A stretch of DNA of 64,000 nt from Phycisphaerae bacterium (GCA_963675745.2 CAXXWX010000019.1:447029-511028); one strand, 5' to 3'; counted from the stretch's first letter, positions 3,181 to 16,615 are shown. Notes: a model not told the origin generated them from the letters alone. Translations and numbers: made by a program.

Positions 3181-3675
3181 TTATCCGCGGAACATGCTGT
3201 GGCACGCCGTACAGGTCGCCTGCATCTGATCGAGCGTGTTGGGCAGTTCGTCGGCGAGGTTGTTCTGGCCCTGCTGCTTGAGGGTCTGGGCCTGCTCGCG
3301 GAGCTTGTCGGTCAGGCTGGCGAATGTCGTTTGCTCTTTCGCTGTCAGGTCCAGCTCGGGCATGGCGAGCTTGAGCATATCCGCCGTATTGACCAGGTCA
3401 TCCGAGACGGCGACGACTTCGCTGAGCAGCTTGGCGCGGTCGGCCTCGGTGTCGTGCTCCTGCGGCAGGCGTCCGAACGTCAGATCCTGGAGATCTCCCA
3501 TCAACTCGTGCAGCCGATCGCTGTGGACGGCGTGGAGGGAAGCCTGATCGGTAGACGCCGCTCGGGACCGATAACTCTCACGCGGCCCGGGAGCACACGA
3601 CGTCGCCACCAGCACCGCTGACAGTAATACTGTGGGGATCACAACGGCAACAGCGATTCGCCGAGTTGATAACAT
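3181..3675 (-). CDS. Cytochrome c'-like (class II) lipoprotein
   Basis: Signal with ATSC lipobox-like site, helical body, single CxxCH (CTACH) at the extreme C-terminus. Confidence 0.75.
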   Translation of the reverse strand: MLSTRRIAVAVVIPTVLLSAVLVATSCAPGPRESYRSRAASTDQASLHAVHSDRLHELMGDLQDLTFGRLPQEHDTEADRAKLLSEVVAVSDDLVNTADMLKLAMPELDLTAKEQTTFASLTDKLREQAQTLKQQGQNNLADELPNTLDQMQATCTACHSMFRG

Positions 3676-3826
3676 CCGATATCTCCTTGCTGGTCGCGTG
3701 AACCGGTCCGTAGTTTGGGGTATTTTATTGCGCCTCGCGTGGACCGGCAATTCAGATTCACCGGCTTCCCAGTTGTGATCCGGGGCCGAATTGCCGATAG
3801 AAACCCTCCTAGGGAGCAGTTCTACG

Positions 3827-4885
3827 GTGTCATCGCATTCGCTGCCGCGGACGTTGGAATGGGTCGGTGATGCCGACGGAGTTCTGAACCTGCTTGACCA
3901 GACGCGTTTGCCCGCCGAGGTCGAGACGCGCGTCTGCCGAACGGCCGAGGATGTCTGGCAGGCAATAAAGGTGCTGGCCGTGCGTGGTGCTCCGGCGATC
4001 GGGGTTGCCGCGGCGTACGGGCTTTGCCTGGGCACGCGGGGTGATCAGGATCTCCCCGCGGACATGTTCAAAGAGCGCGTCAGCCAGGTCGGTGATTATC
4101 TGTGCGCGTGCCGGCCGACGGCGGTGAACCTGGCCTGGGCGGTTCGACGGGTCTCGCGCGCGGCGTTCGAGCGCGAGACACCGGATGCGCGTGCGATGTG
4201 GAGCACGATGCTGGATGAGGCACACACAATAGCTCGAGAAGATGCCGAGATATGTCGGCGGATTGGTGAGCATGGTGCCGATCTGGTGCCGGCCGGCGGC
4301 GGCGTTCTCACACATTGCAATGCCGGGGCTCTGGCGACGGCGGCATACGGCACCGCCTTGTCGTTACTTTATATCGCCCATGAACGGGGCACGCAGTTTC
4401 GCGTGTTTGCCGATGAGACTCGGCCGTTACTTCAAGGGGCGCGGCTCACCGCGTTCGAACTGGCGACGAGCGGCATCGACGTTACGGTGATCTGCGATAG
4501 CGTCGCGCCGACGTTGATGCGGAACGGGGACGTGCAGATGGTGGTCGTCGGGGCGGACCGCATCGCGGCCAACGGTGACGTGGCCAACAAGATCGGCACA
4601 TATGGATTAGCGGTGGCGGCGCGCCATCACGACGTACCTTTTTATGTGGCCGCTCCGCGCAGTACGTTCGACCTCGACCTCGCTGATGGAGCCGCGATCC
4701 CGATAGAAGAGCGCGATGAAGATGAAGTGAGAATGGGGTTCGGTCGGTTGACGGTTGCTCCGGGCGCGCACTGCTACAACCCGGCATTCGACGTCACCCC
4801 GGCCGAACTGGTCACAGGAATCGTCACGGAAAATGGGCTTCTGAAACCGGTTTCGGCTGGTGAAATCGGACGTTTTTTCGGTTGA
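3827..4885 (+). CDS. mtnA: S-methyl-5-thioribose-1-phosphate isomerase
   Basis: LDQTRLP, VRGAPAIG, RPTAVNL, LTHCNAGALAT, ETRPLLQGARLT, GADRIAANGDVANKIGTY, NPAFDVTP; agggag RBS before GTG 3827. Confidence 0.96.
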   Translation: MSSHSLPRTLEWVGDADGVLNLLDQTRLPAEVETRVCRTAEDVWQAIKVLAVRGAPAIGVAAAYGLCLGTRGDQDLPADMFKERVSQVGDYLCACRPTAVNLAWAVRRVSRAAFERETPDARAMWSTMLDEAHTIAREDAEICRRIGEHGADLVPAGGGVLTHCNAGALATAAYGTALSLLYIAHERGTQFRVFADETRPLLQGARLTAFELATSGIDVTVICDSVAPTLMRNGDVQMVVVGADRIAANGDVANKIGTYGLAVAARHHDVPFYVAAPRSTFDLDLADGAAIPIEERDEDEVRMGFGRLTVAPGAHCYNPAFDVTPAELVTGIVTENGLLKPVSAGEIGRFFG

Positions 4886-4890
4886 AGGGG

Positions 4891-4918
4891 TTGCATTGGG
4901 TCGAGAAGCACGTACACT
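4891..4918 (+). promoter_or_regulatory. Sigma70-like promoter ahead of the small-peptide array
   Basis: TTGCAT-N16-TACACT just after the mtnA stop. Confidence 0.5.
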
Positions 4919-5101
4919 TCCGCACTGGTTTTGCGGCGCGGTCATCAGATCTGAGAGTGCCCGTACACGGGTGAGTTCTCCAGTTATAGATCTTGATCCG
5001 GCCGTGGGTATTTCACTTGGGACAGTCGGTGCGTGGCCGGCTGTGGGTTGATGACTCTTGGTTTGGGTTATGGATTGAGTTTCTCTGTGAGGAGGCTCAC
5101 G

Positions 5102-5236
5102 ATGCAGCAACGGATTTGGTTGAAGGGCGCACTGATCACAATGACGATCGGTAGCCTGGCGGCGTTAGCTGGCTGGGGTGATGGTTGCCTCAATGCCACG
5201 ATTCAGCGTCTATTGGTCTCGTACGCATTTGATTGA
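5102..5236 (+). CDS. Small exported peptide 1 (44 aa) MQQRIWLKGALITMTIGSLAALAGWGDGCLNATIQRLLVSYAFD
   Basis: GAGGAGG RBS; basic/hydrophobic leader ending GDGC; same architecture as five neighbours. Confidence 0.75.
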   Translation: MQQRIWLKGALITMTIGSLAALAGWGDGCLNATIQRLLVSYAFD

Positions 5237-5291
5237 TCAACGGGCGTTGTTCGCACACTAGGTACTCAGGCTGAAAATGGGAGAAACACGC

Positions 5292-5441
5292 ATGAAGCGA
5301 AGCATCAAATTGGCGCTAATGTCGCTGAGCACCGGTGCGGTCGCATTGGCACTCGGTGGCTGTGGCGGCTACAACTGGTTCTGGCGTATGCTGGGTGACG
5401 CGGTTGGCGACACCTTCGCGTACAACATTTTCCTGGACTAG
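5292..5441 (+). CDS. Small exported peptide 2 (49 aa) MKRSIKLALMSLSTGAVALALGGCGGYNWFWRMLGDAVGDTFAYNIFLD
   Basis: Translated by hand (absent from ORF track); GGGAGA RBS; LGGC lipobox-like site. Confidence 0.8.
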   Translation: MKRSIKLALMSLSTGAVALALGGCGGYNWFWRMLGDAVGDTFAYNIFLD

Positions 5442-5528
5442 GGCACGATCGTAGTTAATCGCCAGACCACGTCGGCCGGATATAATCAGAGCCGGCCCGG
5501 CTGTCTGGAGATGCAGAGGAGATTCCAG

Positions 5529-5699
5529 ATGAAGAAAGCGAAATTGGTAGCTCTAAGCGCTATGCTGCTTGGTGGCGCCACGCTGTTCGAAGGCTGCGTA
5601 TCGGCCTTTTGGCAGGGCCTGTGGAAGACCGGGTTCCCGGCCAACAACCAGTGGATCGACCTGACGCTCGACATCCTGCGTGAGGATCTGTTGAGCTAG
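5529..5699 (+). CDS. Small exported peptide 3 (56 aa) MKKAKLVALSAMLLGGATLFEGCVSAFWQGLWKTGFPANNQWIDLTLDILREDLLS
   Basis: GAGGAG RBS before ATG 5529; MKK leader, GATLFEGC motif. Confidence 0.82.
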   Translation: MKKAKLVALSAMLLGGATLFEGCVSAFWQGLWKTGFPANNQWIDLTLDILREDLLS

Positions 5700-5860
5700 A
5701 TTTACGTCAGGCGGGGACGGCAGCGTTGACGCGCTGCGTCTTCCGGTCGCACCCCGCGTTTGACTTCAGTCGTAACGGTCGGGACAACCACACGGTAGGG
5801 GGCTGTGGCGCTTGCGTCCAGTCCACCAACGAAACCGTAGTAAGAACACGGAGATAAGCC

Positions 5861-6025
5861 ATGAAGAAGGCCTTTTACGTCAAGCTGATCGTCGGCGGCG
5901 CGCTTTTGCAGGCGACGGCGTTTGCGAGCGGCGCTTCGTGCCTAGGTACTCCGGTACAGGGCGCGCCGATCTACATCGCCTCTGGCAATCTTGTCACGGC
6001 GCTTCAGAACCTTCTCGGTACGTAA
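5861..6025 (+). CDS. Small exported peptide 4 (54 aa) MKKAFYVKLIVGGALLQATAFASGASCLGTPVQGAPIYIASGNLVTALQNLLGT
   Basis: Translated by hand (absent from ORF track); GGAGA RBS; GALLQ...ASC motif; followed by a terminator-like hairpin. Confidence 0.8.
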   Translation: MKKAFYVKLIVGGALLQATAFASGASCLGTPVQGAPIYIASGNLVTALQNLLGT

Positions 6026-6090
6026 GCACCGACGTCTGCCAAGGCGGATGTGGTTTTGTCCCGTCACGCCGTGTAACTGACGTCGACGAC

Positions 6091-6126
6091 GCGGGGCGCG
6101 TTTGCCAAGCAGACGCACCCCGCTTT
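6091..6126 (+). terminator. Terminator-like hairpin after peptide 4
   Basis: gcggggcgcgtttgc-caa-gcagacgcaccccgc then ttt. Confidence 0.6.
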
Positions 6127-6343
6127 CGTGCGCGCCCACCGCGCACCAAGACGCCAACTTGCGGATACGCGGCATCGTGCCGGCTCGCCATGGGCCTGTC
6201 AGGTTGACGTGATCCGCAAGCGAGCGTCGTCGCGGGTGCTTGAGTATCGCGAATGGCGAGCAGCCCCGGTGGGCTGCGTTCAGGGCGGCCAGACGCATTG
6301 GCGTGGCCGCCGCCGTCACCACCTTGTTGTGGCGCCACCCCCC

Positions 6344-6372
6344 TTGTTCGGTCAGCCGGGGTTGCGTATACT
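6344..6372 (+). promoter_or_regulatory. Sigma70-like promoter for peptides 5-6
   Basis: TTGTTC-N17-TATACT, about 50 nt before ATG 6422. Confidence 0.5.
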
Positions 6373-6421
6373 TCAGCACGACCAACGCGGTCACTGGTGC
6401 ATAGCGTTAGTGGAGCTCGTG

Positions 6422-6661
6422 ATGTCGCAAACCAGACGAAAACTGATGGTCTTGGTCTTGATTCTCGGAGCAGGCACGATGTTTCAGGCGGTCGGTTCCG
6501 GCTGCCTCCAGTATTACACTTACGCCGCACTCGAGGGTATCAACTTCTGCTCGGTTCTGAACTGCGACTCGAGTACGTTCTTCAACCTGTGCAGCCCGGT
6601 TCCTCTCCTGGGCCGATTGTCCGACCACGGCCGGGGGCGGCGGCTGATAGCGCGAGGTTAG
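6422..6661 (+). CDS. Small exported Cys-rich peptide 5 (MSQTRRKL...GAGTMFQAVGSGC...INFCSVLNCDSSTFFNLCSPVPLL); true end probably ADCPTTAGGGG-stop at 6647
   Basis: GGAG RBS; leader motif shared with the array; removing one G at 6610-6612 adds a fifth Cys (even number of non-lipobox Cys) and removes the overlap with the next gene's RBS. Confidence 0.75.
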   Translation: MSQTRRKLMVLVLILGAGTMFQAVGSGCLQYYTYAALEGINFCSVLNCDSSTFFNLCSPVPLLGRLSDHGRGRRLIARG

Positions 6662-6663
6662 TG

Positions 6664-6939
6664 ATGCGCAAGACGTCTTCTTTTCGCGGAGTGCTGCTAA
6701 CACTGGGACTATGCGCCGCCGGTACGTTGTGTCAGTTTGGCGGTTGCGGCTTCCCGGAGTTGACCAGTTTCCTCACGAGCATCAATCCGTGCGGCACGAT
6801 CCTGGATTGTGACCCCGCTCAGTACACCTTTGCGACGTCCGGATACAGCGGTCCCGGCGTCGATCTGAATGTGGACATGACTTGCACGTTCCCGCCGTAC
6901 TGCGGTACGGCTCTGGTTCCGGCTGACACAGAGCCCTGA
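6664..6939 (+). CDS. Small exported Cys-rich peptide 6 (91 aa; AGTLCQFGGC...INPCGTILDCDP...TCTFPPYCG)
   Basis: GAGG RBS; shared leader; INxC...LxCD motif shared with peptide 5. Confidence 0.8.
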   Translation: MRKTSSFRGVLLTLGLCAAGTLCQFGGCGFPELTSFLTSINPCGTILDCDPAQYTFATSGYSGPGVDLNVDMTCTFPPYCGTALVPADTEP

Positions 6940-7017
6940 CTCGACGTTGGCCCGGCCCTCCCGCGCCTCGCGCAGGTCGTGTAAACTAACGACCAGTGTA
7001 CAGCCGAGGGGCGCTGC

Positions 7018-10000
7018 GTGTTGCCCAGAAGCGCCCACCCAACAAACCTCTATGCTGCGCGTATCACATGCGCTGCGCTCGTCGCCATAACGCTGCTGCA
7101 CCTTCAGATGGCGGCAGCCCTCTGGGACGAGACGGAGTTGCCGGCACCATCAACAACCGTCGATGCTCTATCGCCCCGCGCCACAGCGCTGATCCCCGAC
7201 AACGTTGACGAATCCGCGGACGCCGGTGTTTTCACCAGACGATCGCATAGTCTGCCGGTCAGCAATGAAGCCGGGCTTCTGATTCAACAGTTGGATAGCG
7301 CGCTCGACGAACGCGAATATCGCCGCGCGGTCCGTGTCGCCGAGCGTCTTTTCGAGTTGCCCGACACGCTTGTTGCGAGTCGCGATGGCAAGGTGTTCTA
7401 TCCGGCGTGGCGCCAGACTGCGGCGTTGCTCGATCAATTGCCACCGGAGGGAGTAGCGCTCTATCGGCAGCTCTTTGACGCGCGCGTCGCCTCACGGCTG
7501 ACGCAGGTCGCCGCGCGGGGTGACCTTGTGGCTCTGCGCACATTGTTCGAGCAGCAGCGCCTCAGCGCGCACTGGCCAGCCATCGGAACCGAGCTGGCGG
7601 CCCAGTCACTCGACCGCGGGGCCTGGCTCGACGTGGTGGACACCACCAGCCAGATGCTGAGTGCGGGGATTGATGACAGTGTCATGCACGCGCAACGGGT
7701 GGTCGCGCTGACCAGGCTTGGCCGGTATGAAGCAGCCGTGCGTGAGCTTGACCGACTGGAACAACTCACGCCAGCGCAACATGATGCGGGCACCACTCAC
7801 ACGGCGGAGCTCGTCCGCGCGTGGTTCGACGCACAACGCGCGCCGCGGCGCGATGTGTCCGCGGCGTGGGGGATGCAGCGGTTGTTGCACGCGGCGGTTG
7901 CGTGGCGCTGCGAGCTGTCAATGCCCGCGGGCTGCCGCGCCTGCCCCGGTTATCGCGAAATAGCGCATGCTATTTCGGTGCTGCGCCGGCCGCCGCGCTA
8001 CCAGGGCGTGCTCGAAGCCGGCATGCTTGTTGTGCGACGGTTTGGCGCGTTGTGGGGCATCAACGCGGACACGCTCGTGACGCAATGGTGTGCGCGCGAA
8101 GCACTGCCCAGCCCGACAAGGGGGGCTGACGCAGCTCGACGATGAGGATGTGGCGACGGCGACACGCCTGGATCGAGACGTCGCTCTCCTGTTTCGTGAC
8201 GCGCACGCGCATGCCCTCTCCGGCGCGTTCGGTCAAGTCTACAGCATCGAGCCATTGGCGTTGGGTCCACCGGAGACTCTCCCGCCGGCCGTGGCGCAAT
8301 ACTGGAGCTTCGGCTCCGAGATATTTGCGAACAGGCTGGTTGCGCGCGACGCGCGGTCCGGTGAGACCACATGGGAGCTTGGAGCCGATCCGACTCATGC
8401 GCTCTATGGCGCGGCGTTCCTTGACGTTCCCGCCGCCATCGGCGACATGCTCGTGGTGCCATACCAACGCCGCGACGAGTTACTCCTGGCCATGCTGGAG
8501 CCGGTCAGCGGTCGGCTGGTTGAGCGCTTCGTAGTCCATGGGTCGCCGACCAGTTTCACACCGCTTGGCGGCCAGTGCTTCGTGCTGGTTGAGCATCCCG
8601 TTGTGTACATTTGCACGGGCAACGGCGTTGCGGCGGCACTCCGCCTGCGCTCGTCACCTACGCGAGGCGCGCCGGCCCTTACGTGGGAGTGGGCCACGCA
8701 TTACGCCGAACCTGAGCCCATCGACTCTGTCGCGACCTGGTGGGTGGCCGATGATGAGCACGATTCATGGCCATCCGAGCGCCCGATATTGACGGATGAG
8801 CTGCTGATACTCCCGCCGTACGACAGTGACGAGCTGGTCGCGCTCAACCGTTTCGACGGCCGTGAACGATGGCGCGTGCCCTGGTCGGAGACCGAAATAC
8901 TCGTCGGCCCGCTGCCGGGAGGTTTTGTGACGGCTGGGGACCGCGTGCGCTGTCGCGAATCCGCAACGGGCCGCACGTTCCACTGGCAATCGTTGCCAAT
9001 CGAGCTGACGGGTCGTCCGGCACTCCTCGGCGGAGACGTCGTCGTGCCGACGCCGGACGGCCTGTTGGTGCTTGATGGCGCTACGGGGAAGGTCGTCGCC
9101 GACCAATGGCAGCCGCACGATACGCAGCCGGCGTCGAATCGAGAGGCATCCGCCAACCTGCTGGCTGCGACTGACGCGCTGTTTGCCGTCGGGCCGGACA
9201 TGGTGCAGAAGTACCCCAGCCCGGCAGTGCGCAGCTTGTACTCCAAGGCCGGGTCTGAGCCGGTAACCGCCGCACGAGACAGGTACATCCTGGCGATGCT
9301 TGATGCGCTGGAGGGGGAGCTCGAGTCCGCCTGCGACCGTCTGCGCGACCTGGTGCCCGACGACCCCGGGCTTCGTGCCGCTCGTGACCGCCTGGGTACC
9401 AGCGTGCTGCTGGCGCTGGCCGATCGCGCGCCTAACGACGCCGAGCGCCTGGCGCGATTGCGCGAGGCTGCCGCGGCGGGGGCGGGCACGCGCGCCGGCG
9501 CCCTGTTGGGCGATGTGCTCGAGCAATCGGGCTTTCCCGAGGAAGCGTTGGCACATTTCAAGGAAATCCTGCTCAGCGCCCCGGCAGACCACATTTCGCC
9601 GGGGCCGGTGGCAGGCTATCGCGTCGCGGATTGGTTATATGCCGCGGGGCGCGTCGATTCACTCCTCGCGGGCATGTCGCCGGGTGATCGGCAGGCGTTT
9701 GTGGAAAACCTGGTTACGGACGCGATTGCCTCCGGGCGCCCGAGCAGGATGATGCGCGTATATCCGCTGGTTATCGACGCCCAGCAGCGCGAGCGCCTGG
9801 GCCAGGCACTGGTGTTGTGGCAGCCGGCGGACGCGAACGATCCGGAAACAGGCACGCTGCGGCCTGAGTTGCTGGCGCGATACCTGCCCGACGGCGGCGC
9901 CGGCCGCGCGGAGGTGCCGGCGCGTGATACGCTCAACGGCACAGCGGCCGGCGTGTTCACGTCTGACCTGCAACGCCGTTGGGTTGCCGAAGATCACGAA

Positions 10001-11281
10001 CTGATTCTGCCACGTGGTGAAGGTGGCCCGCCGGACACTCTGCCGCTGCGCCATCTCGTTAACCAGCGCATCAGTCTGGTTACAACGGCGACTGGCCGCG
10101 TGCGAACCTCGACCGTCGATGGCGTCACTGGTGGTCGTGGTGTGGCGGAATCGCTCGCCGACTCGGCCCAGCACGCGCTGTTCAGCAACACCGACATCTA
10201 CTCACCGATCCCAGGCGCCTGGCCGGCAATTCGTCACCGCGATCTTGCCGCTCTGCCAACGGTCGGCGGACTGATCGCGTTTGGACTGGGTGCGGAGCCG
10301 GGTGGTGGGCAGCGTCTCTGGGAATATGCCATCCCGCAATGGCACGCCGACCAAGCGGGTTTTGCGCGGCACGCCGTCGCGGGACCAGATGGCGTGTACC
10401 TCTTTGCGCAACCCGGCCGGCTGATTCACGTGGGATGGTCTGATGGCTTGCTGCGCTGGGAACGCGATCTGCCCGGCATCTCCTGCCGACATCTGGCGCT
10501 CGCCGCGGGGATGCTGGTGCTGACCGATGATGAGGGCCGCGCCTACACACTCGATCCGGCTCTGGGGCACCCGTTATGCAGCGTGACGGCGTTCCAGGAT
10601 GTGCCCGCCGAAAGTGCCGTTGTAGGCGATCTTGTATTACGCTGGACCGACGAAGTACTGCGCGGCGTGGATCCCCGGACGCTGGAGACACTCTGGTCGC
10701 GCAGCACGGGGGCGATCGGCGCCCAGCACGTCGTCACCGGGCGCGAGTGGTTCGCCTATCAATCACGCGTGTCCGGGATCTGGCACCTGCTTGACGTGCG
10801 CAACAATGAGCCACTGCCGGTCAATTTGCCCCACGACGTCGGCGCAGTCGAAGTGGTTGTCGCCACAGAGGGACAGCTGCTGGTGGTCTCGAACGCAACG
10901 GGTATGGCGGAGGCGCCGAATACGGTGTATGAGTTGTCCGCCTATGATCCGCGCGACGGTCGCCAGCTATGGTCGCGCCGCCAGGTGTCCGCGACATCGC
11001 CAAACGCGTCGCAGCTATGCGGGCACCCGGCCTACATCGTCATCCTGCGCTGGAGCGACGGCCAGCCGGCCCTTGAGCTGATTGACCGGCACACCGGCGA
11101 CACGGTTACGCCGACCGGTTGGATGAGCGAACCCGGCCGGGATTTGCTGCCGTTGGGCGAGTATTTCGGCCCCGGCGATGCGTCTCGTGGTAGATTCGTG
11201 CTCGTAACGTCAGACAGTATTATCGTACAGGCGCTGGGCCGTGTAATTGCGTTCGGCAGCGCCGCGCCAGGACCACCGTGA
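7018..11281 (+). CDS. Large exported PQQ-like (BamB-type) beta-propeller/TPR protein, split by an apparent frameshift in the G6 run at 8120-8125
   Basis: ORFs 7018-8145 and 8090-11281 join in frame if one G is removed; repeated A.D..(T/S)G...W propeller motifs; TPR-like helices; start uncertain. Confidence 0.75.
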
Positions 11282-12381
11282 TGCCTCATGGTCGTATCCA
11301 CACAATCGCCGCGCGCTCGTCTTGCGTGCTGATTTGGCTGGGCGCGGCCTGTGGCGCCATATGGCCATCCAGCGCGCCCGGCGGCCAGCCCGAGGAAAGC
11401 CAACGCCCGGTTCCACAGTCCGAGCCCGAGGGGATAACGCCGGAGATCAGGCACGCCATCGACACGGGTCTGGCCTATCTGGTTTCGACGCAGAACCGGG
11501 ACGGGAGTTGGCGAACGCGCGGTCGCGCGGGCAGCTATCCGACGGCGATGACATCACTGGCGGGTTTAGCGCTGCTGGCCTCGGGCAGCACGCCGACCGA
11601 AGGGCCGCACGCACGCAGCGTCAGTCGCGCGCTGACCTTCGTGCTTGACAGCGTTCGGCGTGACGGGCTGATCGCACAACTCGAGGAGGAATCTCACAAC
11701 ATGCACGGCCACGGACTGGCCATGCTGTTTCTCGCGCAATGTTATGGCATGGAGGAAGATCCGAGTCGCGGCGCGCGAATCAGACGCGCGCTACAGCAGG
11801 CGGTTGAACTCACCGCGCGCAGCCAGAGCGTTGCCGGTGGATGGCTATACACGCCGGATTCGCGCGGCGATGAAGGCTCGGTGACGGTGACTCAGGTCCA
11901 GGGACTGCGAGCCTGCCGCAACGTTGGCATCGCGGTGCCCAAACGCGTCATTGACAACGCGTTGGCCTATCTGGAGAAATCGCAAAACGACGATGGCGGG
12001 GTGCGCTACCAGGTCGATGATCATGGCCCCGGCCGGGCGGCGATAACGGCCGCCGCCGTCGCCTGCTGGTATAACGCGGGCATGTATGACGACGTTCACG
12101 CGCGGCGTGCCTTGAGTTTTGCAAAGGACAAGCTGGACCCCGAGCGCGGCGAGACGACCGGTCACCACTATTACGCGCATCTGTATTTTGCGCAGGTAAT
12201 GTACCAGGCCGGCCCTGAGCAATGGCGGAGCTACTTCGCACCCATGAGCAGATATCTCCTTCAAAACCAGGCGAGCGACGGCTCGTGGATGGGGGATTCC
12301 GTTGGGCCGACCTATGGCACGGCGGTCGCATTGATTATTCTGCAACTGCCGCACAAGCATCTGCCGATCATGCAGCGTTGA
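11278..12381 (+). CDS. Prenyltransferase/squalene oxidase repeat ((alpha/alpha)6 barrel) protein
   Basis: QW-type repeats QNRDGSW, QSVAGGW, QNDDGGV, QASDGSW; N-terminal signal; overlaps the upstream stop. Confidence 0.85.
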
Positions 12382-12403
12382 TGCCGGCGGCGCGGAGGAA
12401 CGC

Positions 12404-13492
<1,089 letters not shown>

Positions 13493-14362
13493 CGCGGTCG
13501 CGCGGCTCCGTGGCCTGCAACTCCGCGCGCGCACGATTGTGGCCGGCGCGCGTTCGGGCCTGCACCGCAGCGCCTATCGCGGCTACAGCGTCGAATTCGC
13601 CGAGCACCGCCAATACGTGCCCGGCGACGACGTGCGGCACATCGACTGGCGGCTGTTCGGCCGCAAGGATCGCCTCTACATCAAGCAGTACGAGGAAGAG
13701 AGTAATCTGGCGTGCCAGCTCCTGCTCGACGTCAGCGGTTCGATGTCGCACGGTAGCGGGCCGCTGAGCAAGTTCGATTACGCATGTTGTCTGGCCGCGA
13801 GCCTGGCGTGGCTGTTGATACACCAGCAGGACGCCGCCGGTCTGATTACCTTTGACCGCGATATTCGCGCGACGTTGCCGACCGGCACGGGCACGCAGCA
13901 TCTGGCGTCATTGATCGGCATGCTCGAAGCCGCACAGCCCGCCCAGCCGACCGATGTGGAAGCCCTGCTGCACCGTCTGGCGCGGGAGCTGCGCCGCCGC
14001 TCGATAGTCGCGCTCTTCTCCGACCTGCTGATGCCGGCGGAACGTGTCGTGACGGGCGTCGAACATCTGAGCCATGCGGGACATGAGTTGATCGTGTTTC
14101 ACATCATGGACGATGACGAGTGGCATCTGCCGATGCACGAGAATCTGTTGTTCGAGGGATTGGAGAGCGATGGGCATCTGCTGGCCGATCCACAGAGCCT
14201 GCGCGAGTCCTACCTCGCGGCCGTTGAGCGTCATGTCGTGCGCATCCGCGCCGCCTGCCTTCAGCACGGCGCCGATTACGTGCCGGTGAACACACGAGAC
14301 CCGCTCGACCGCGTGCTCAGTGCCTATCTTGCTCGCCGGGGACGGCGAAGGGCGGGAAGCCG

Positions 14363-16615
14363 ATGATGGCGCCGGCGCTGATCGCGTTTGGCTTCGTCAA
14401 TCCCCTGCTGCTGGCCGGGCTGGGGCTCATCGCACTGCCGATCATCATTCACTGGCTCGCACGCCGGCGGTACCGTGTTCAACCATGGGCCGCGATGCAG
14501 TTCTTGCTCGAGGCCGAGCGGGAGAGTCGCCGGCGCCGGCACCTGGCGCAGTGGTTGCTCCTGGCCTTGCGCTGCCTGGTTATCGCGCTGCTGGCGTTGC
14601 TGGTCGCACGGCCGTTCTTCGAAACCCGGGCCAGCGCCGCGCTGCTCGCGGGTCCGCAACGCACCTGCCATGTGATCGTGCTCGACGATTCGGCTAGCTC
14701 GCAACTGCGGCGCGGGACGACGACCGTTTTCCAGCGCCTGCAAACAGCCGCGACGCGTCTGGTCGATTGGATCAGTCAGTCGTCGGGTGACAGCGCCATT
14801 GCGGTCTACCGTACATCACGACCCGATGAGCCGCTATTGACGCCGAAGCAGTTGACCGCCGAGCGTCTCGGCCCGTTGCGGACAATGATCGAACAACTCG
14901 AGCCCACCACGCTGCGCGCCGCGCCGGCGCGCGTGATGCGCACAATCGCCGGGCAGGTTGCCGCCGGCGAGCAATACGATCGAACCACGATCTACGTGTT
15001 GTCTGACTTCCAGCGCAGCGACTGGATTGGTGATGATGCGAGCGAGGCCGTGTTCCACCCGTTGCGCGCGTTGGACGATCGCGCACCACGCATCCTGATG
15101 TTGACTGCCGATTCAACGGGGCGGGCCAACATCTCCGTGCAGACGCTTCGGCTCGAACGCCCCCATGCACTCGCCGGCATCCCGGCGCGGCTGCGAACTC
15201 GCGTGGCCAATCACGGTGCGCGGCCGATCGAGAAGCTGGTGCTACAACTATCGATTGATGATCAACCACTGCCCGCCATGCCGCTGCCGGTCATCGACCC
15301 CGGCGATATGGCCGAGACGGTGACGGAATTGAGCTTTCCCGCTGCGGGCCATGTTGTGGTGTCCGGCGGTCTCGAAGCGCCGGACGGATTCGATCTCGAC
15401 GACCGCTATGGCCTCGCGGTCAGTGTGGAAGATTGTCTACCGGTGCTGGTGGTCAACGGTGCGCCGGATCTCGACGCGCGGCGCGATGAGGCCTATCTGT
15501 TGCGTCGGGCCCTGGCTCCACCCGGGCCATTTGCCTCCGGAGTTCGCCCGGACGTGATCGACGTCGAGCGGCTCAGCGGCACGGAGCTCGACCCATGGGC
15601 GTGTGTTCTGCTATGTAATGTCGGCCCGCTGCCCGATGACACAGCCGCGAGGTTGCGGCGGTACGTGGAGAGCGGCGGGGGGCTGGCGTTCTTCCTGGGT
15701 GACAACGCGCAAGACACGGCCGCCCTTAACCGCACGTTTGGCAGCGCCGGGCATGACTTGCTGCCCGCAGTACTGACGGAGATCGTTGATGCTCCCGAGG
15801 GGGCGCAGATCGGCATGGTCAGTGCCGCCGCGCACCCGGCGACGGCGGGCTTCCCCGATGATTCCGACGCGCTGTCAGAGTACGTGAGCTTTCGCCGTTA
15901 CGCGCGTTGCCGCATTGATGATGACACCAGTGACGCCACGGTCCTCGCGCGGTTCACTGATGACCGGCAGACGCCGGCGCTGATCGAGCGGCGTATCGGC
16001 GACGGGCGTGTCGCCTTGTTCGCGTCCAGCGCGGATATGGAATGGAACAATTGGCCGGCATCGGTCGATGGCAGCTATGTCGTTGCGCTGCTTGATCTGG
16101 TGCAGTATCTGTCCCGCCGCTCCGAGTCGAATGGAACGCTGGTTTGCGGAGATGAGTTGGCGGTCGCGCTTGCACCGGCGCGTTACGATCCTTCCGTGCA
16201 GTTCAAGCCGCCAACCTATCCGGCCCGGCCCGCGGTTTCCGGCGGAGCGGTGAACGCCGGGATCATCGAGAACGGTCGCATACTGTTCAGGGGGCCGGTT
16301 GCCGATCAACTCGGCACCTACAAGGCTGAGTTGGCACCACGGGTCGGTGGCGTCGAAACGCGGCCGTTGTGCGTAAATATAGACCCGCGCGAATCGGATC
16401 TACGCGTCGCCACCTCTGAGGAGCTCGAAGCGATGGTCGAGGGGCTGCCCCATGTGATCGCCCCGCTCGATGAAACCCTGCCGGATGGGAGTATTGAAGC
16501 GCGCGGTGAAATCTGGCGCGCACTTGTCATCGCAATCGTGTTTATGCTGATGCTGGAACACCTGTGTGCGTGGTGGTTTGGCCGCGCGCGCCGCTCGGCG
16601 CCGCATCGGCCGTGA
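14363..16615 (+). CDS. BatA N-terminal + VWA + Ig/GATase-like membrane protein
   Basis: FVNPLLL...LPIIIH, WAAMQFL, LLLALR, ARP (BatA); DDSAS MIDAS; RESDL and C-terminal TM. Confidence 0.88.
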   Translation: MMAPALIAFGFVNPLLLAGLGLIALPIIIHWLARRRYRVQPWAAMQFLLEAERESRRRRHLAQWLLLALRCLVIALLALLVARPFFETRASAALLAGPQRTCHVIVLDDSASSQLRRGTTTVFQRLQTAATRLVDWISQSSGDSAIAVYRTSRPDEPLLTPKQLTAERLGPLRTMIEQLEPTTLRAAPARVMRTIAGQVAAGEQYDRTTIYVLSDFQRSDWIGDDASEAVFHPLRALDDRAPRILMLTADSTGRANISVQTLRLERPHALAGIPARLRTRVANHGARPIEKLVLQLSIDDQPLPAMPLPVIDPGDMAETVTELSFPAAGHVVVSGGLEAPDGFDLDDRYGLAVSVEDCLPVLVVNGAPDLDARRDEAYLLRRALAPPGPFASGVRPDVIDVERLSGTELDPWACVLLCNVGPLPDDTAARLRRYVESGGGLAFFLGDNAQDTAALNRTFGSAGHDLLPAVLTEIVDAPEGAQIGMVSAAAHPATAGFPDDSDALSEYVSFRRYARCRIDDDTSDATVLARFTDDRQTPALIERRIGDGRVALFASSADMEWNNWPASVDGSYVVALLDLVQYLSRRSESNGTLVCGDELAVALAPARYDPSVQFKPPTYPARPAVSGGAVNAGIIENGRILFRGPVADQLGTYKAELAPRVGGVETRPLCVNIDPRESDLRVATSEELEAMVEGLPHVIAPLDETLPDGSIEARGEIWRALVIAIVFMLMLEHLCAWWFGRARRSAPHRP

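Follow-up and report, generated by a model that had tools for sequence, protein, structure and literature searches.

What is encoded by the six short open reading frames (ORFs) that follow one another on the plus strand between positions 5102 and 6939 of a 64,000-nucleotide (nt) stretch of DNA from the Phycisphaerae bacterium GCA_963675745.2 (CAXXWX010000019.1:447029-511028; hereafter the window), and what becomes of the products? An earlier note on this DNA had proposed a single array of six small exported peptides, each anchored through a cysteine (Cys) at the end of a shared leader. Our comparative data indicated that all six ORFs, here called p1 to p6, are real, conserved genes and that they form two adjacent operons, p1-p4 and p5-p6, transcribed separately. 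Their products probably represent six families of micro-lipoproteins not described before and matured by Lgt, LspA, and Lnt, a reading that draws on leader architecture and on the enzymes encoded in the host genome.

The predicted products comprise 44 amino acids (aa) for p1 (5102-5236), 49 for p2 (5292-5441), 56 for p3 (5529-5699), 54 for p4 (5861-6025), 79 as written for p5 (6422-6661), and 91 for p6 (6664-6939). Each ORF was found where the earlier note had placed it, together with all the leader strings quoted there, and each begins with ATG preceded at 5-12 nt by a Shine-Dalgarno (SD) sequence of the GGAG/GAGG type. The gaps that the note had remarked in the ORF track were also as described: p1, p5, and p6 lie inside longer ORFs (5033-5236, 6128-6661, and 6253-6939, respectively), and p2 and p4 fall below the 60-aa cut-off. 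Relatives were collected by a tblastn-type search with p6, and 5 kb on either side of each match was fetched; after removal of duplicates, the families p1 to p6 held 33, 35, 34, 17, 63, and 62 distinct sequences, p4 being the most divergent. Orthologues of each ORF recurred in these relatives in unchanged order and spacing (p1, p2, p3, often p4, then p5 and p6; loci L009-L028 included). Against L011, the closest relative and a member of the same genus, the ratio of nonsynonymous to synonymous divergence (dN/dS) was 0.24 for p1, 0.20 for p2, 0.10 for p3, 0.59 for p4, about 0.10 for p5 (0.16 for its mature part alone), and 0.20 for p6, with dS values of 0.8-4.7 that are partly saturated. Five of the six genes are thus under clear purifying selection, and p4 is weakly so and the least constrained. 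Strain variants present in contigs of sediment RNA libraries carried six substitutions within p1-p3, five of them at third codon positions; the sole coding-region indel was an in-frame GGC insertion in p2, and the spacers held many more changes and a 1-nt deletion.

These patterns bear on the possibility that some or all of the small ORFs are untranslated and owe their conservation to RNA elements. A conserved structured RNA does lie just upstream of p1, and most gene calls omit these short ORFs, a word-indexed protein search having returned only 5 clusters, the window's own protein included. However, identity between orthologous proteins is 34-84% with synonymous change dominant, the SD sequence and ATG are conserved at each ORF, gaps in the conserved core keep the downstream frame and motifs intact, and the p6 profile matched 42 clusters of predicted proteins among 1.84 billion representatives, so that lack of translation appears extremely improbable. 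Because all 42 clusters are only 69-137 aa long, no fused forms of p6 exist among them. Two antisense ORFs (5942-6394 and 5994-6530) gave no match in tblastn against related loci and were discounted as spurious.

All six families share one plan, consisting of a Lys/Arg-rich tip, a short hydrophobic stretch, usually a small residue, and then Cys. All 244 members carry the Cys at the leader end: in 240 it falls in a single alignment column, and in the other 4 it is displaced by two residues. Where the start is correctly assigned, this Cys is residue 21-31. In the window, the leaders end in GDGC (p1), LGGC (p2), GGATLFEGC (p3), and CQFGGC (p6), and across the families the residue at -1 is G or S in 32-33 of 33 p1, all 34 p3, 57 of 63 p5, and 54 of 62 p6 sequences. 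The likeness of the leaders was assessed with hidden Markov models (HMMs) trained on five families and scoring the sixth, against a background of 167 candidate lipoprotein leaders from large ORFs of the host genome (G000, 91% complete). Sixty-four of the 90 held-out leaders scored above the 95th percentile of this background (p6, 13/21; p5, 19/20; p3, 13/14; p2, 10/14; p1, 6/13; p4, 3/8), indicating that the six leaders are related beyond a generic signal, with weaker support for p1 and p4. The earlier view of exported small proteins with a common leader and a Cys as anchor point is borne out.

A basic n-region, a short h-region, and a small residue before an invariant Cys are what lipoproteins of the Lgt/LspA/Lnt pathway display, and all three enzymes were found in G000 with scores over cut-off: LspA (PF01252) at 104.8 bits, Lgt (PF01790) at 134.1 and 51.4 bits, and Lnt (TIGR00546) at 230.8 bits summed over two same-frame pieces. 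If p1-p6 follow this pathway, the precursors would be exported by Sec, Lgt would place diacylglycerol on the invariant Cys, LspA would cut before it, and Lnt may add a third acyl chain. The p1-p4 products would then become lipid-anchored peptides of about 15-36 aa on a periplasm-facing membrane surface, and p5 and p6 would form disulfide-stabilized acidic mini-domains of about 45-64 aa on such a surface. The families differ from ordinary members of the pathway in that their -3 and -2 positions are often Pro, Gly, Asp, Glu, Asn, or Gln rather than Leu and Ala/Ser, in the extra motif shared by their leaders, and in mature parts of down to 15 aa.

The mature parts are themselves conserved. The core of p1 reads C-L-x-A-T-I-Q-R-I-L-V and spans 15-16 aa across the family (16 aa predicted in the window), p2 carries a conserved F-L-G-D-x-x-G-D motif, and p3 is Trp/Phe-rich (C-L-G-A-F-W-x-G-F-W-N-T-G-W-P ... 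D-I-x-x-E), with a probable helix after this stretch; in most relatives p4 reads ...ALGLNC-LPNIG... around the Cys. The 64-aa mature part of p6 has the motifs N-P-C-G-T-I-L-x-C-D-P and D-P-x-C-T-F-P-P-F-C. Conserved Cys residues number exactly one in p1-p4 and one plus four in p5 and p6; in 21-sequence alignments the four further residues never vary in p6 and rarely, if at all, in p5, and in the 62-63-member sets all five Cys columns are conserved in at least 85%. The even remainder fits one lipidated Cys and two disulfides, and two matches to disulfide enzymes of the VKOR type were found in G000. Both families are acidic (mean net charge, -3.8 for p5 and -6.2 for p6). As for the suggestion that the six form one paralogous family, p5 and p6 are indeed paralogues (hhalign probability, 97.3%; E value, 2.4e-11; the match spans the leader and the first Cys pair), whereas the likeness of p1-p4 is mostly confined to the leader. 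Close to its 3' end, the window copy of p5 has one G too many in the run at 6610-6612, a +1 frameshift when compared with three orthologues of the same genus; in the alternative frame (ADCPTTAGGGG*) the conserved last Cys returns, and the product would comprise 74 aa, ending at 6647. Since the contigs of a DNA run covering 4600-6457 and 6611-7300 break at this point, the frameshift could be an assembly error or real heterogeneity. A complex prediction for mature p6 with mature p5 scored 0.01 without controls and weighs neither way.

Strong divergence of the mature parts, as the earlier note had described it, does not hold between orthologues: pairwise identity was 0.35-0.53 in mature parts versus 0.30-0.44 in leaders, which means that the families are not a system of conserved leader and hypervariable core. 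This bears directly on a role as released peptides, i.e., signals, pheromones, or products like bacteriocins and ribosomally synthesized and post-translationally modified peptides (RiPPs), cut by signal peptidase I or by a dedicated protease at Gly-Gly-Cys. RiPP and bacteriocin precursors join a conserved leader to a variable core, as in those with Nif11/NHLP-type or double-glycine leaders. In common with them, several small ORFs here share a leader ending in Gly-Gly or Gly-x before the core, a leader found in all six families and in some dispersed small ORFs; the Gly found at -1 of p1, and in many members at -3, would be compatible with signal peptidase I; and the products are very short, with a patchily distributed p1-p4 unit. 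In contrast to such precursors, the cores are conserved, the genes are single copy and syntenic across the order, the leader is a hydrophobic Sec-type signal rather than an amphipathic double-glycine leader, and the invariant Cys at +1 would have no role. Among the large ORFs that flank the array in the window, Pfam scans revealed no maturase, protease or peptidase, ATP-binding cassette (ABC) exporter, or immunity gene, and the lack of a maturase, exporter, or other constant partner nearby argues against a RiPP or bacteriocin system. A search for pilin features likewise found no G|F-x-x-x-E before a hydrophobic helix; the hydrophobic stretch precedes Gly-Cys, and the Pfam and NCBIfam prepilin models were silent. 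Released peptides are therefore a distinctly improbable outcome, and the RiPP/bacteriocin, pilin, and antagonistic-peptide roles raised in the note found nothing in their support.

The single array proposed at first was not borne out: the six plus-strand ORFs belong to two units with separate promoters and evolutionary fates. A terminator-like hairpin with a T-run (4847-4879; hairpin, 4847-4869) was detected on the plus strand by a consensus scan at the 3' end of the upstream gene mtnA, separating it from the peptide genes, and is followed by a putative p1-p4 promoter read from the sequence (4891-4918, plus strand; -35 TTGCAT at 4891-4896, 16-nt spacer, -10 TACACT at 4913-4918). The same scan placed a second terminator-like hairpin with a T-rich tail after p4 (6032-6061, plus strand; hairpin, 6032-6051), at the end of the first unit, and a second putative promoter precedes p5 (6344-6372, plus strand; -35 TTGTTC at 6344-6349, 17-nt spacer, -10 TATACT at 6367-6372). 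In relatives, TTGNNN-N16-18-TANNNT occurred 151-198 nt before p1 in 28 of 32 upstream regions (1.3 expected from shuffles), and TTGNNN-N16-18-TAYANT occurred 28-67 nt before p5 in 52 of 58 (0.25 expected), with TATACT itself in 35. The predicted transcripts would start near 4925 and 6379 and end near 6061 and past 6939, respectively. The two units also part company in the genomes G011 and G021, which carry mtnA-p1-p2-p3-p4 and p5-p6 on separate contigs. Three sediment RNA libraries yielded contigs with 90-99% likeness to the window that span 5011-5871 (p1-p3 and the beginning of p4); the rest of 4600-7300 is represented in these libraries by one 35-nt mtnA piece in one run, and 5874-7300 is uncovered. 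This hints, if weakly, at good expression of the first unit in situ.

Several observations weigh against processing as lipoproteins. Only 52 of 240 leaders pass a rule like PROSITE PS51257, with the pattern {DERK}(6)-[LIVMFWSTAG](2)-[LIVMFYSTAGCQ]-[AGS]-C, in keeping with the non-canonical lipobox noticed earlier; of the window copies, p2, p4, and p5 pass by eye and p1, p3, and p6 fail. The departures include Pro at -3 in 32 of 63 p5 sequences, D/E/N/Q at -2 in many p1 and p3 sequences, and N or Q at -1 in 12 of 34 p2 and 9 of 14 p4 sequences. The ordinary large candidate lipoproteins of G000, which are also a loose set, mostly end in L/V/A-x-G-C (G at -1 in 108 of 167), and by our count Q occupies -3 or -4 in about 8 of the 167. 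The G-x-T-L-F-Q-like motif of the leaders exceeds a generic signal, the p1-p3 leader is about as conserved as the mature part, and a leader-HMM scan of 97,051 ORFs in G000 gave 11 full matches, all with just 20-63 residues after the leader, at marginal E values of 4e-4 to 3 and with four of the 11 coming from this array. A 19-residue Kyte-Doolittle mean of 1.6 was reached by 87 of 238 members, which is borderline between signal peptide and membrane anchor; hydrophobicity gave no separation and was dropped as a discriminator. LolA (PF03548) was not found in G000 at its 91% completeness. The AlphaFold2 (AF2) models are poor (predicted local distance difference test [pLDDT], 64.3 for p6 and 64.8 for p3), values too low for a fold search. 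Gene context points to no function, with no constant gene downstream of p6 in relatives, and the RNA-library contigs, all from one study, neither prove transcription nor rank the genes, the p5-p6 gap not amounting to silence. With so few leaders passing the lipobox rule, and with a leader that is more than a generic signal, lipoprotein processing is at best the probable route.

Much of this evidence would suit uncleaved single-pass membrane micro-proteins (N terminus in, C terminus out) whose helices pack in a hetero-oligomeric bundle and whose interfacial Cys residues form intermolecular disulfides or bind a cofactor. The equal conservation of leader and mature part in p1-p3, a common helix motif in which p5 has an almost invariant polar Gln, a leader signature beyond generic lipoprotein signals that is confined to tiny ORFs, the failure of 78% of leaders under the lipobox rule, the membrane-helix-like hydrophobicity of 87 members, and a low-confidence AF2 model of p3 with one helix running through the Cys all speak for such proteins. 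Set against them, the uncharged non-polar core is short (family medians, 12.5-17 residues, with 16-20 residues from the last Lys/Arg to the Cys across 238 members), the Cys always stands just past a small residue where the hydrophobic stretch ends, a hallmark of signal peptidase II substrates, and the leader of p5 and p6 evolves about 2-3 times faster than the mature part (dN, 0.57-0.70 versus 0.25 against L011). A fixed six-part bundle is also unlikely because p1-p4 do not always accompany p5-p6. We consider uncleaved helices rather unlikely overall and retain lipidation at the Cys as the probable fate of the products. A more far-reaching version of the lipoprotein reading, in which the G-x-T-L-F-Q...G-C leader would mark a dedicated class of ribosomal lipopeptides sorted through a relaxed or separate lipobox logic, with p1-p4 switched by a riboswitch-like RNA, is unlikely; if it were true, the four co-expressed lipopeptides would be a regulated membrane-active or envelope-remodeling unit rather than passive anchors.

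Small ORFs with similar leaders also occur elsewhere. A 66-aa ORF on the minus strand of G000 (C1:132712-132909; L094 1498-1698) ends its leader in ...GGAALLQAGSC; relatives of it turned up in 13 of the 40 other genomes searched. The ORF immediately preceding it on that strand (L094 1304-1477; 57 aa from an internal ATG) carries ...CLALGGC, and the two form a second tandem pair. By comparison, a 48-aa leader-bearing ORF of G000 (C16:284336-284479) was matched in none of the same-family genomes and only weakly in one other genome of the order (E value, 0.006). Given the differing distributions of the 48-aa and 66-aa ORFs, the candidate set is mixed, and a wider family of dispersed micro-lipoproteins in G000 is not claimed. 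In some other families of the order, an extra small ORF with a similar leader follows p6 (L032 5728-5829, L037 5453-5587, and L041 5454-5603) and may represent a seventh family.

DNA-level conservation is seen in the spacer between mtnA and p1, where the promoter and a 5' leader RNA lie within 4886-5104. An alignment of 22 upstream regions (A10) delineated this leader RNA, about 175 nt long, on the plus strand (4931-5104). Three elements were discerned: a long closing helix holding an invariant GGCGCGG (4935-4941), a hairpin at about 5023-5043 with a UGCGU-like loop and compensatory changes in 5 of 5 stem pairs, and a last hairpin at about 5077-5098 that pairs the SD sequence AGGAGG (5090-5095). 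Pairing held in 79.6% of alignment cells versus 35-49% when the partners were slid, a level reached by none of 500 shuffles, and the covariation score was 0.228 versus 0.05-0.09; one proposed helix (columns 121-126 with 172-177) was poorly supported at 58% paired. A trimmed alignment was required for this result, as RNAalifold returned one hairpin only on the raw 31-sequence alignment. The covariance model built for the leader, R1, found a single copy in G000 (127.5 bits at 4931-5104; next match, below 20 bits) and one strong copy in 14 of 24 same-family genomes (38.6 to 135 bits), and every strong match checked lay immediately upstream of p1. Six genomes (G004, G006, G012, G013, G020, and G024) lacked both an R1 match and a p3-profile match, and the leader RNA was too divergent for the stricter filters in G009, G010, and G016, which have p1-p3, and in G019, where the only match (25.6 bits) fell on a contig other than that of its array. 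No Rfam family matched the leader in the window (E values up to 1) or in five related loci (E values up to 0.1; tRNAs only). By these sequence comparisons, the leader RNA appears to be new and is a candidate cis-regulatory element acting on translation. SD-sequestering 5' leaders include riboswitch expression platforms and RNA thermometers, and the p1 leader resembles them in that its last hairpin pairs the ribosome-binding site below conserved, covarying upstream domains; it differs from them in having no Rfam family, in being single copy, and in being tied to one operon. The p1-p4 products would accordingly come under an additional control, in which the last hairpin would hide the ribosome-binding site until opened by a signal, a protein, or temperature.

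The two units also differ in distribution. In the tblastn-type search, p6 was matched at E values of 1 or below in 39 of 41 related genomes and in all 24 of the same family. An even sampling of the class gave a single p6 copy in 27 of 27 same-order genomes and p6 in 3 of 7 genomes from another family, with none in the remaining 166. The p1-p4 genes behave as a block whose distribution is patchy compared with order-wide p6: the p3 profile matched 18 of 24 same-family genomes and 4 of 16 other genomes of the order, with no match in the nearly complete genomes G004, G006, and G020. Among 56 further loci, part of which come from genomes already sampled, p5-p6 occurred in every untruncated one, p1-p3 in 28, and p2-p3 alone in one. 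Of 41 titled loci, 40 were metagenome-assembled genomes (MAGs) labeled Phycisphaerae, Phycisphaerales, Planctomycetota, or "Planctomycetales," and no cultured carrier was among the 41. A p6 homologue also occurs on a short contig (L082; NZ_CAILVI010000010.1, 1810 nt) of a MAG labeled Thiodictyon, which is probably a binning error rather than gene transfer.

The only constant neighbor of the peptide genes is mtnA (3791-4885; IF-2B family; PF01008, 280.5 bits), which lies upstream in 45 of the 56 loci. As a cytoplasmic protein encoded beyond a terminator-like site and a promoter, it was rejected as a partner. On the opposite strand, an ORF at 3181-4035 has a C-terminal match to cytochrome c' (PF01322, 27.8 bits); because its first 60 or so codons overlap mtnA, its true start is probably further in, and tblastn matches to its N-terminal part in relatives are the antisense frame of mtnA. 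On the other side, an overlapping plus-strand run (7018-16615) encodes an uncharacterized 375-aa protein, a 1,063-aa propeller of the pyrroloquinoline quinone (PQQ)/BamB-like type, a protein with prenyltransferase/squalene-cyclase repeats, MoxR, a DUF58 protein, and a BatA-like protein. The run resembles a single long operon of the Bat/MoxR type whose start is 79 nt beyond p6. In relatives, the genes downstream of p6 are of two unrelated types, either the 375-aa protein with the PQQ-propeller/MoxR cluster (23 of 56 loci) or a gene for a cytoplasmic CCG-domain protein, and a functional link between the peptides and the BamB-like propeller/MoxR/Bat cluster was dropped.

Small lipoproteins as a kind are well known, and p1-p6 are new members. 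No named family was found for any of them in Pfam, NCBIfam, or the ESM Atlas, Pfam being silent for all six at E values up to 10, and none of the listed papers on Phycisphaerae small lipoproteins, the Planctomycetes lipobox, and entericidin-like small lipoproteins concerned these genes; the suggestion of an undescribed system is supported in that none of the six matched a characterized family. The nearest parallels are instructive. The enterobacterial entericidins A and B (PF08085) are two tandem micro-lipoproteins with about 21-27 mature residues and, like p1-p6, come from tandem genes for very small, probably helical lipopeptides; unlike them, the present genes have no PF08085 match, constitute six families in two operons across an order, and show no sign of a toxin-antidote pair. 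LptM (YifL; NF047847), which aids maturation of the lipopolysaccharide translocon, is likewise a tiny lipoprotein, and p2 scores 13.4 bits against its model (E value, 0.06) versus a cut-off of 27.7, over residues 1-25, i.e., the signal peptide only, so that p2 is not a member. Braun's lipoprotein Lpp, a small and abundant component of the envelope, is expressed from a strong promoter of its own. The present products share with it a small lipoprotein-like form, a short transcript of their own, a consensus-like promoter, and a housekeeping distribution, which holds for p6 and, by synteny, for p5. They differ from Lpp in that no search gave sequence similarity and in that p5 and p6 are Cys-rich and acidic, not coiled coil.

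Taken together, promoters close to consensus, strong ribosome-binding sites, vertical inheritance as single copies, and the occurrence of p6 throughout the order suggest that the peptides are abundant housekeeping parts of the envelope, not weapons or signals. Genes of this size are routinely missed, and p6, accompanied by p5 at each untruncated locus examined, appears to be a core gene throughout an uncultured order of Phycisphaerae. As a candidate new cis-regulatory element, the leader RNA has the merits of a clean association with one locus, support from covariation, and an expression platform that is easy to read. Real use of the atypical lipoboxes would call for more permissive lipoprotein predictors in this phylum. 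The planctomycete envelope is poorly understood, and p5 and p6 provide concrete candidates for its abundant components.

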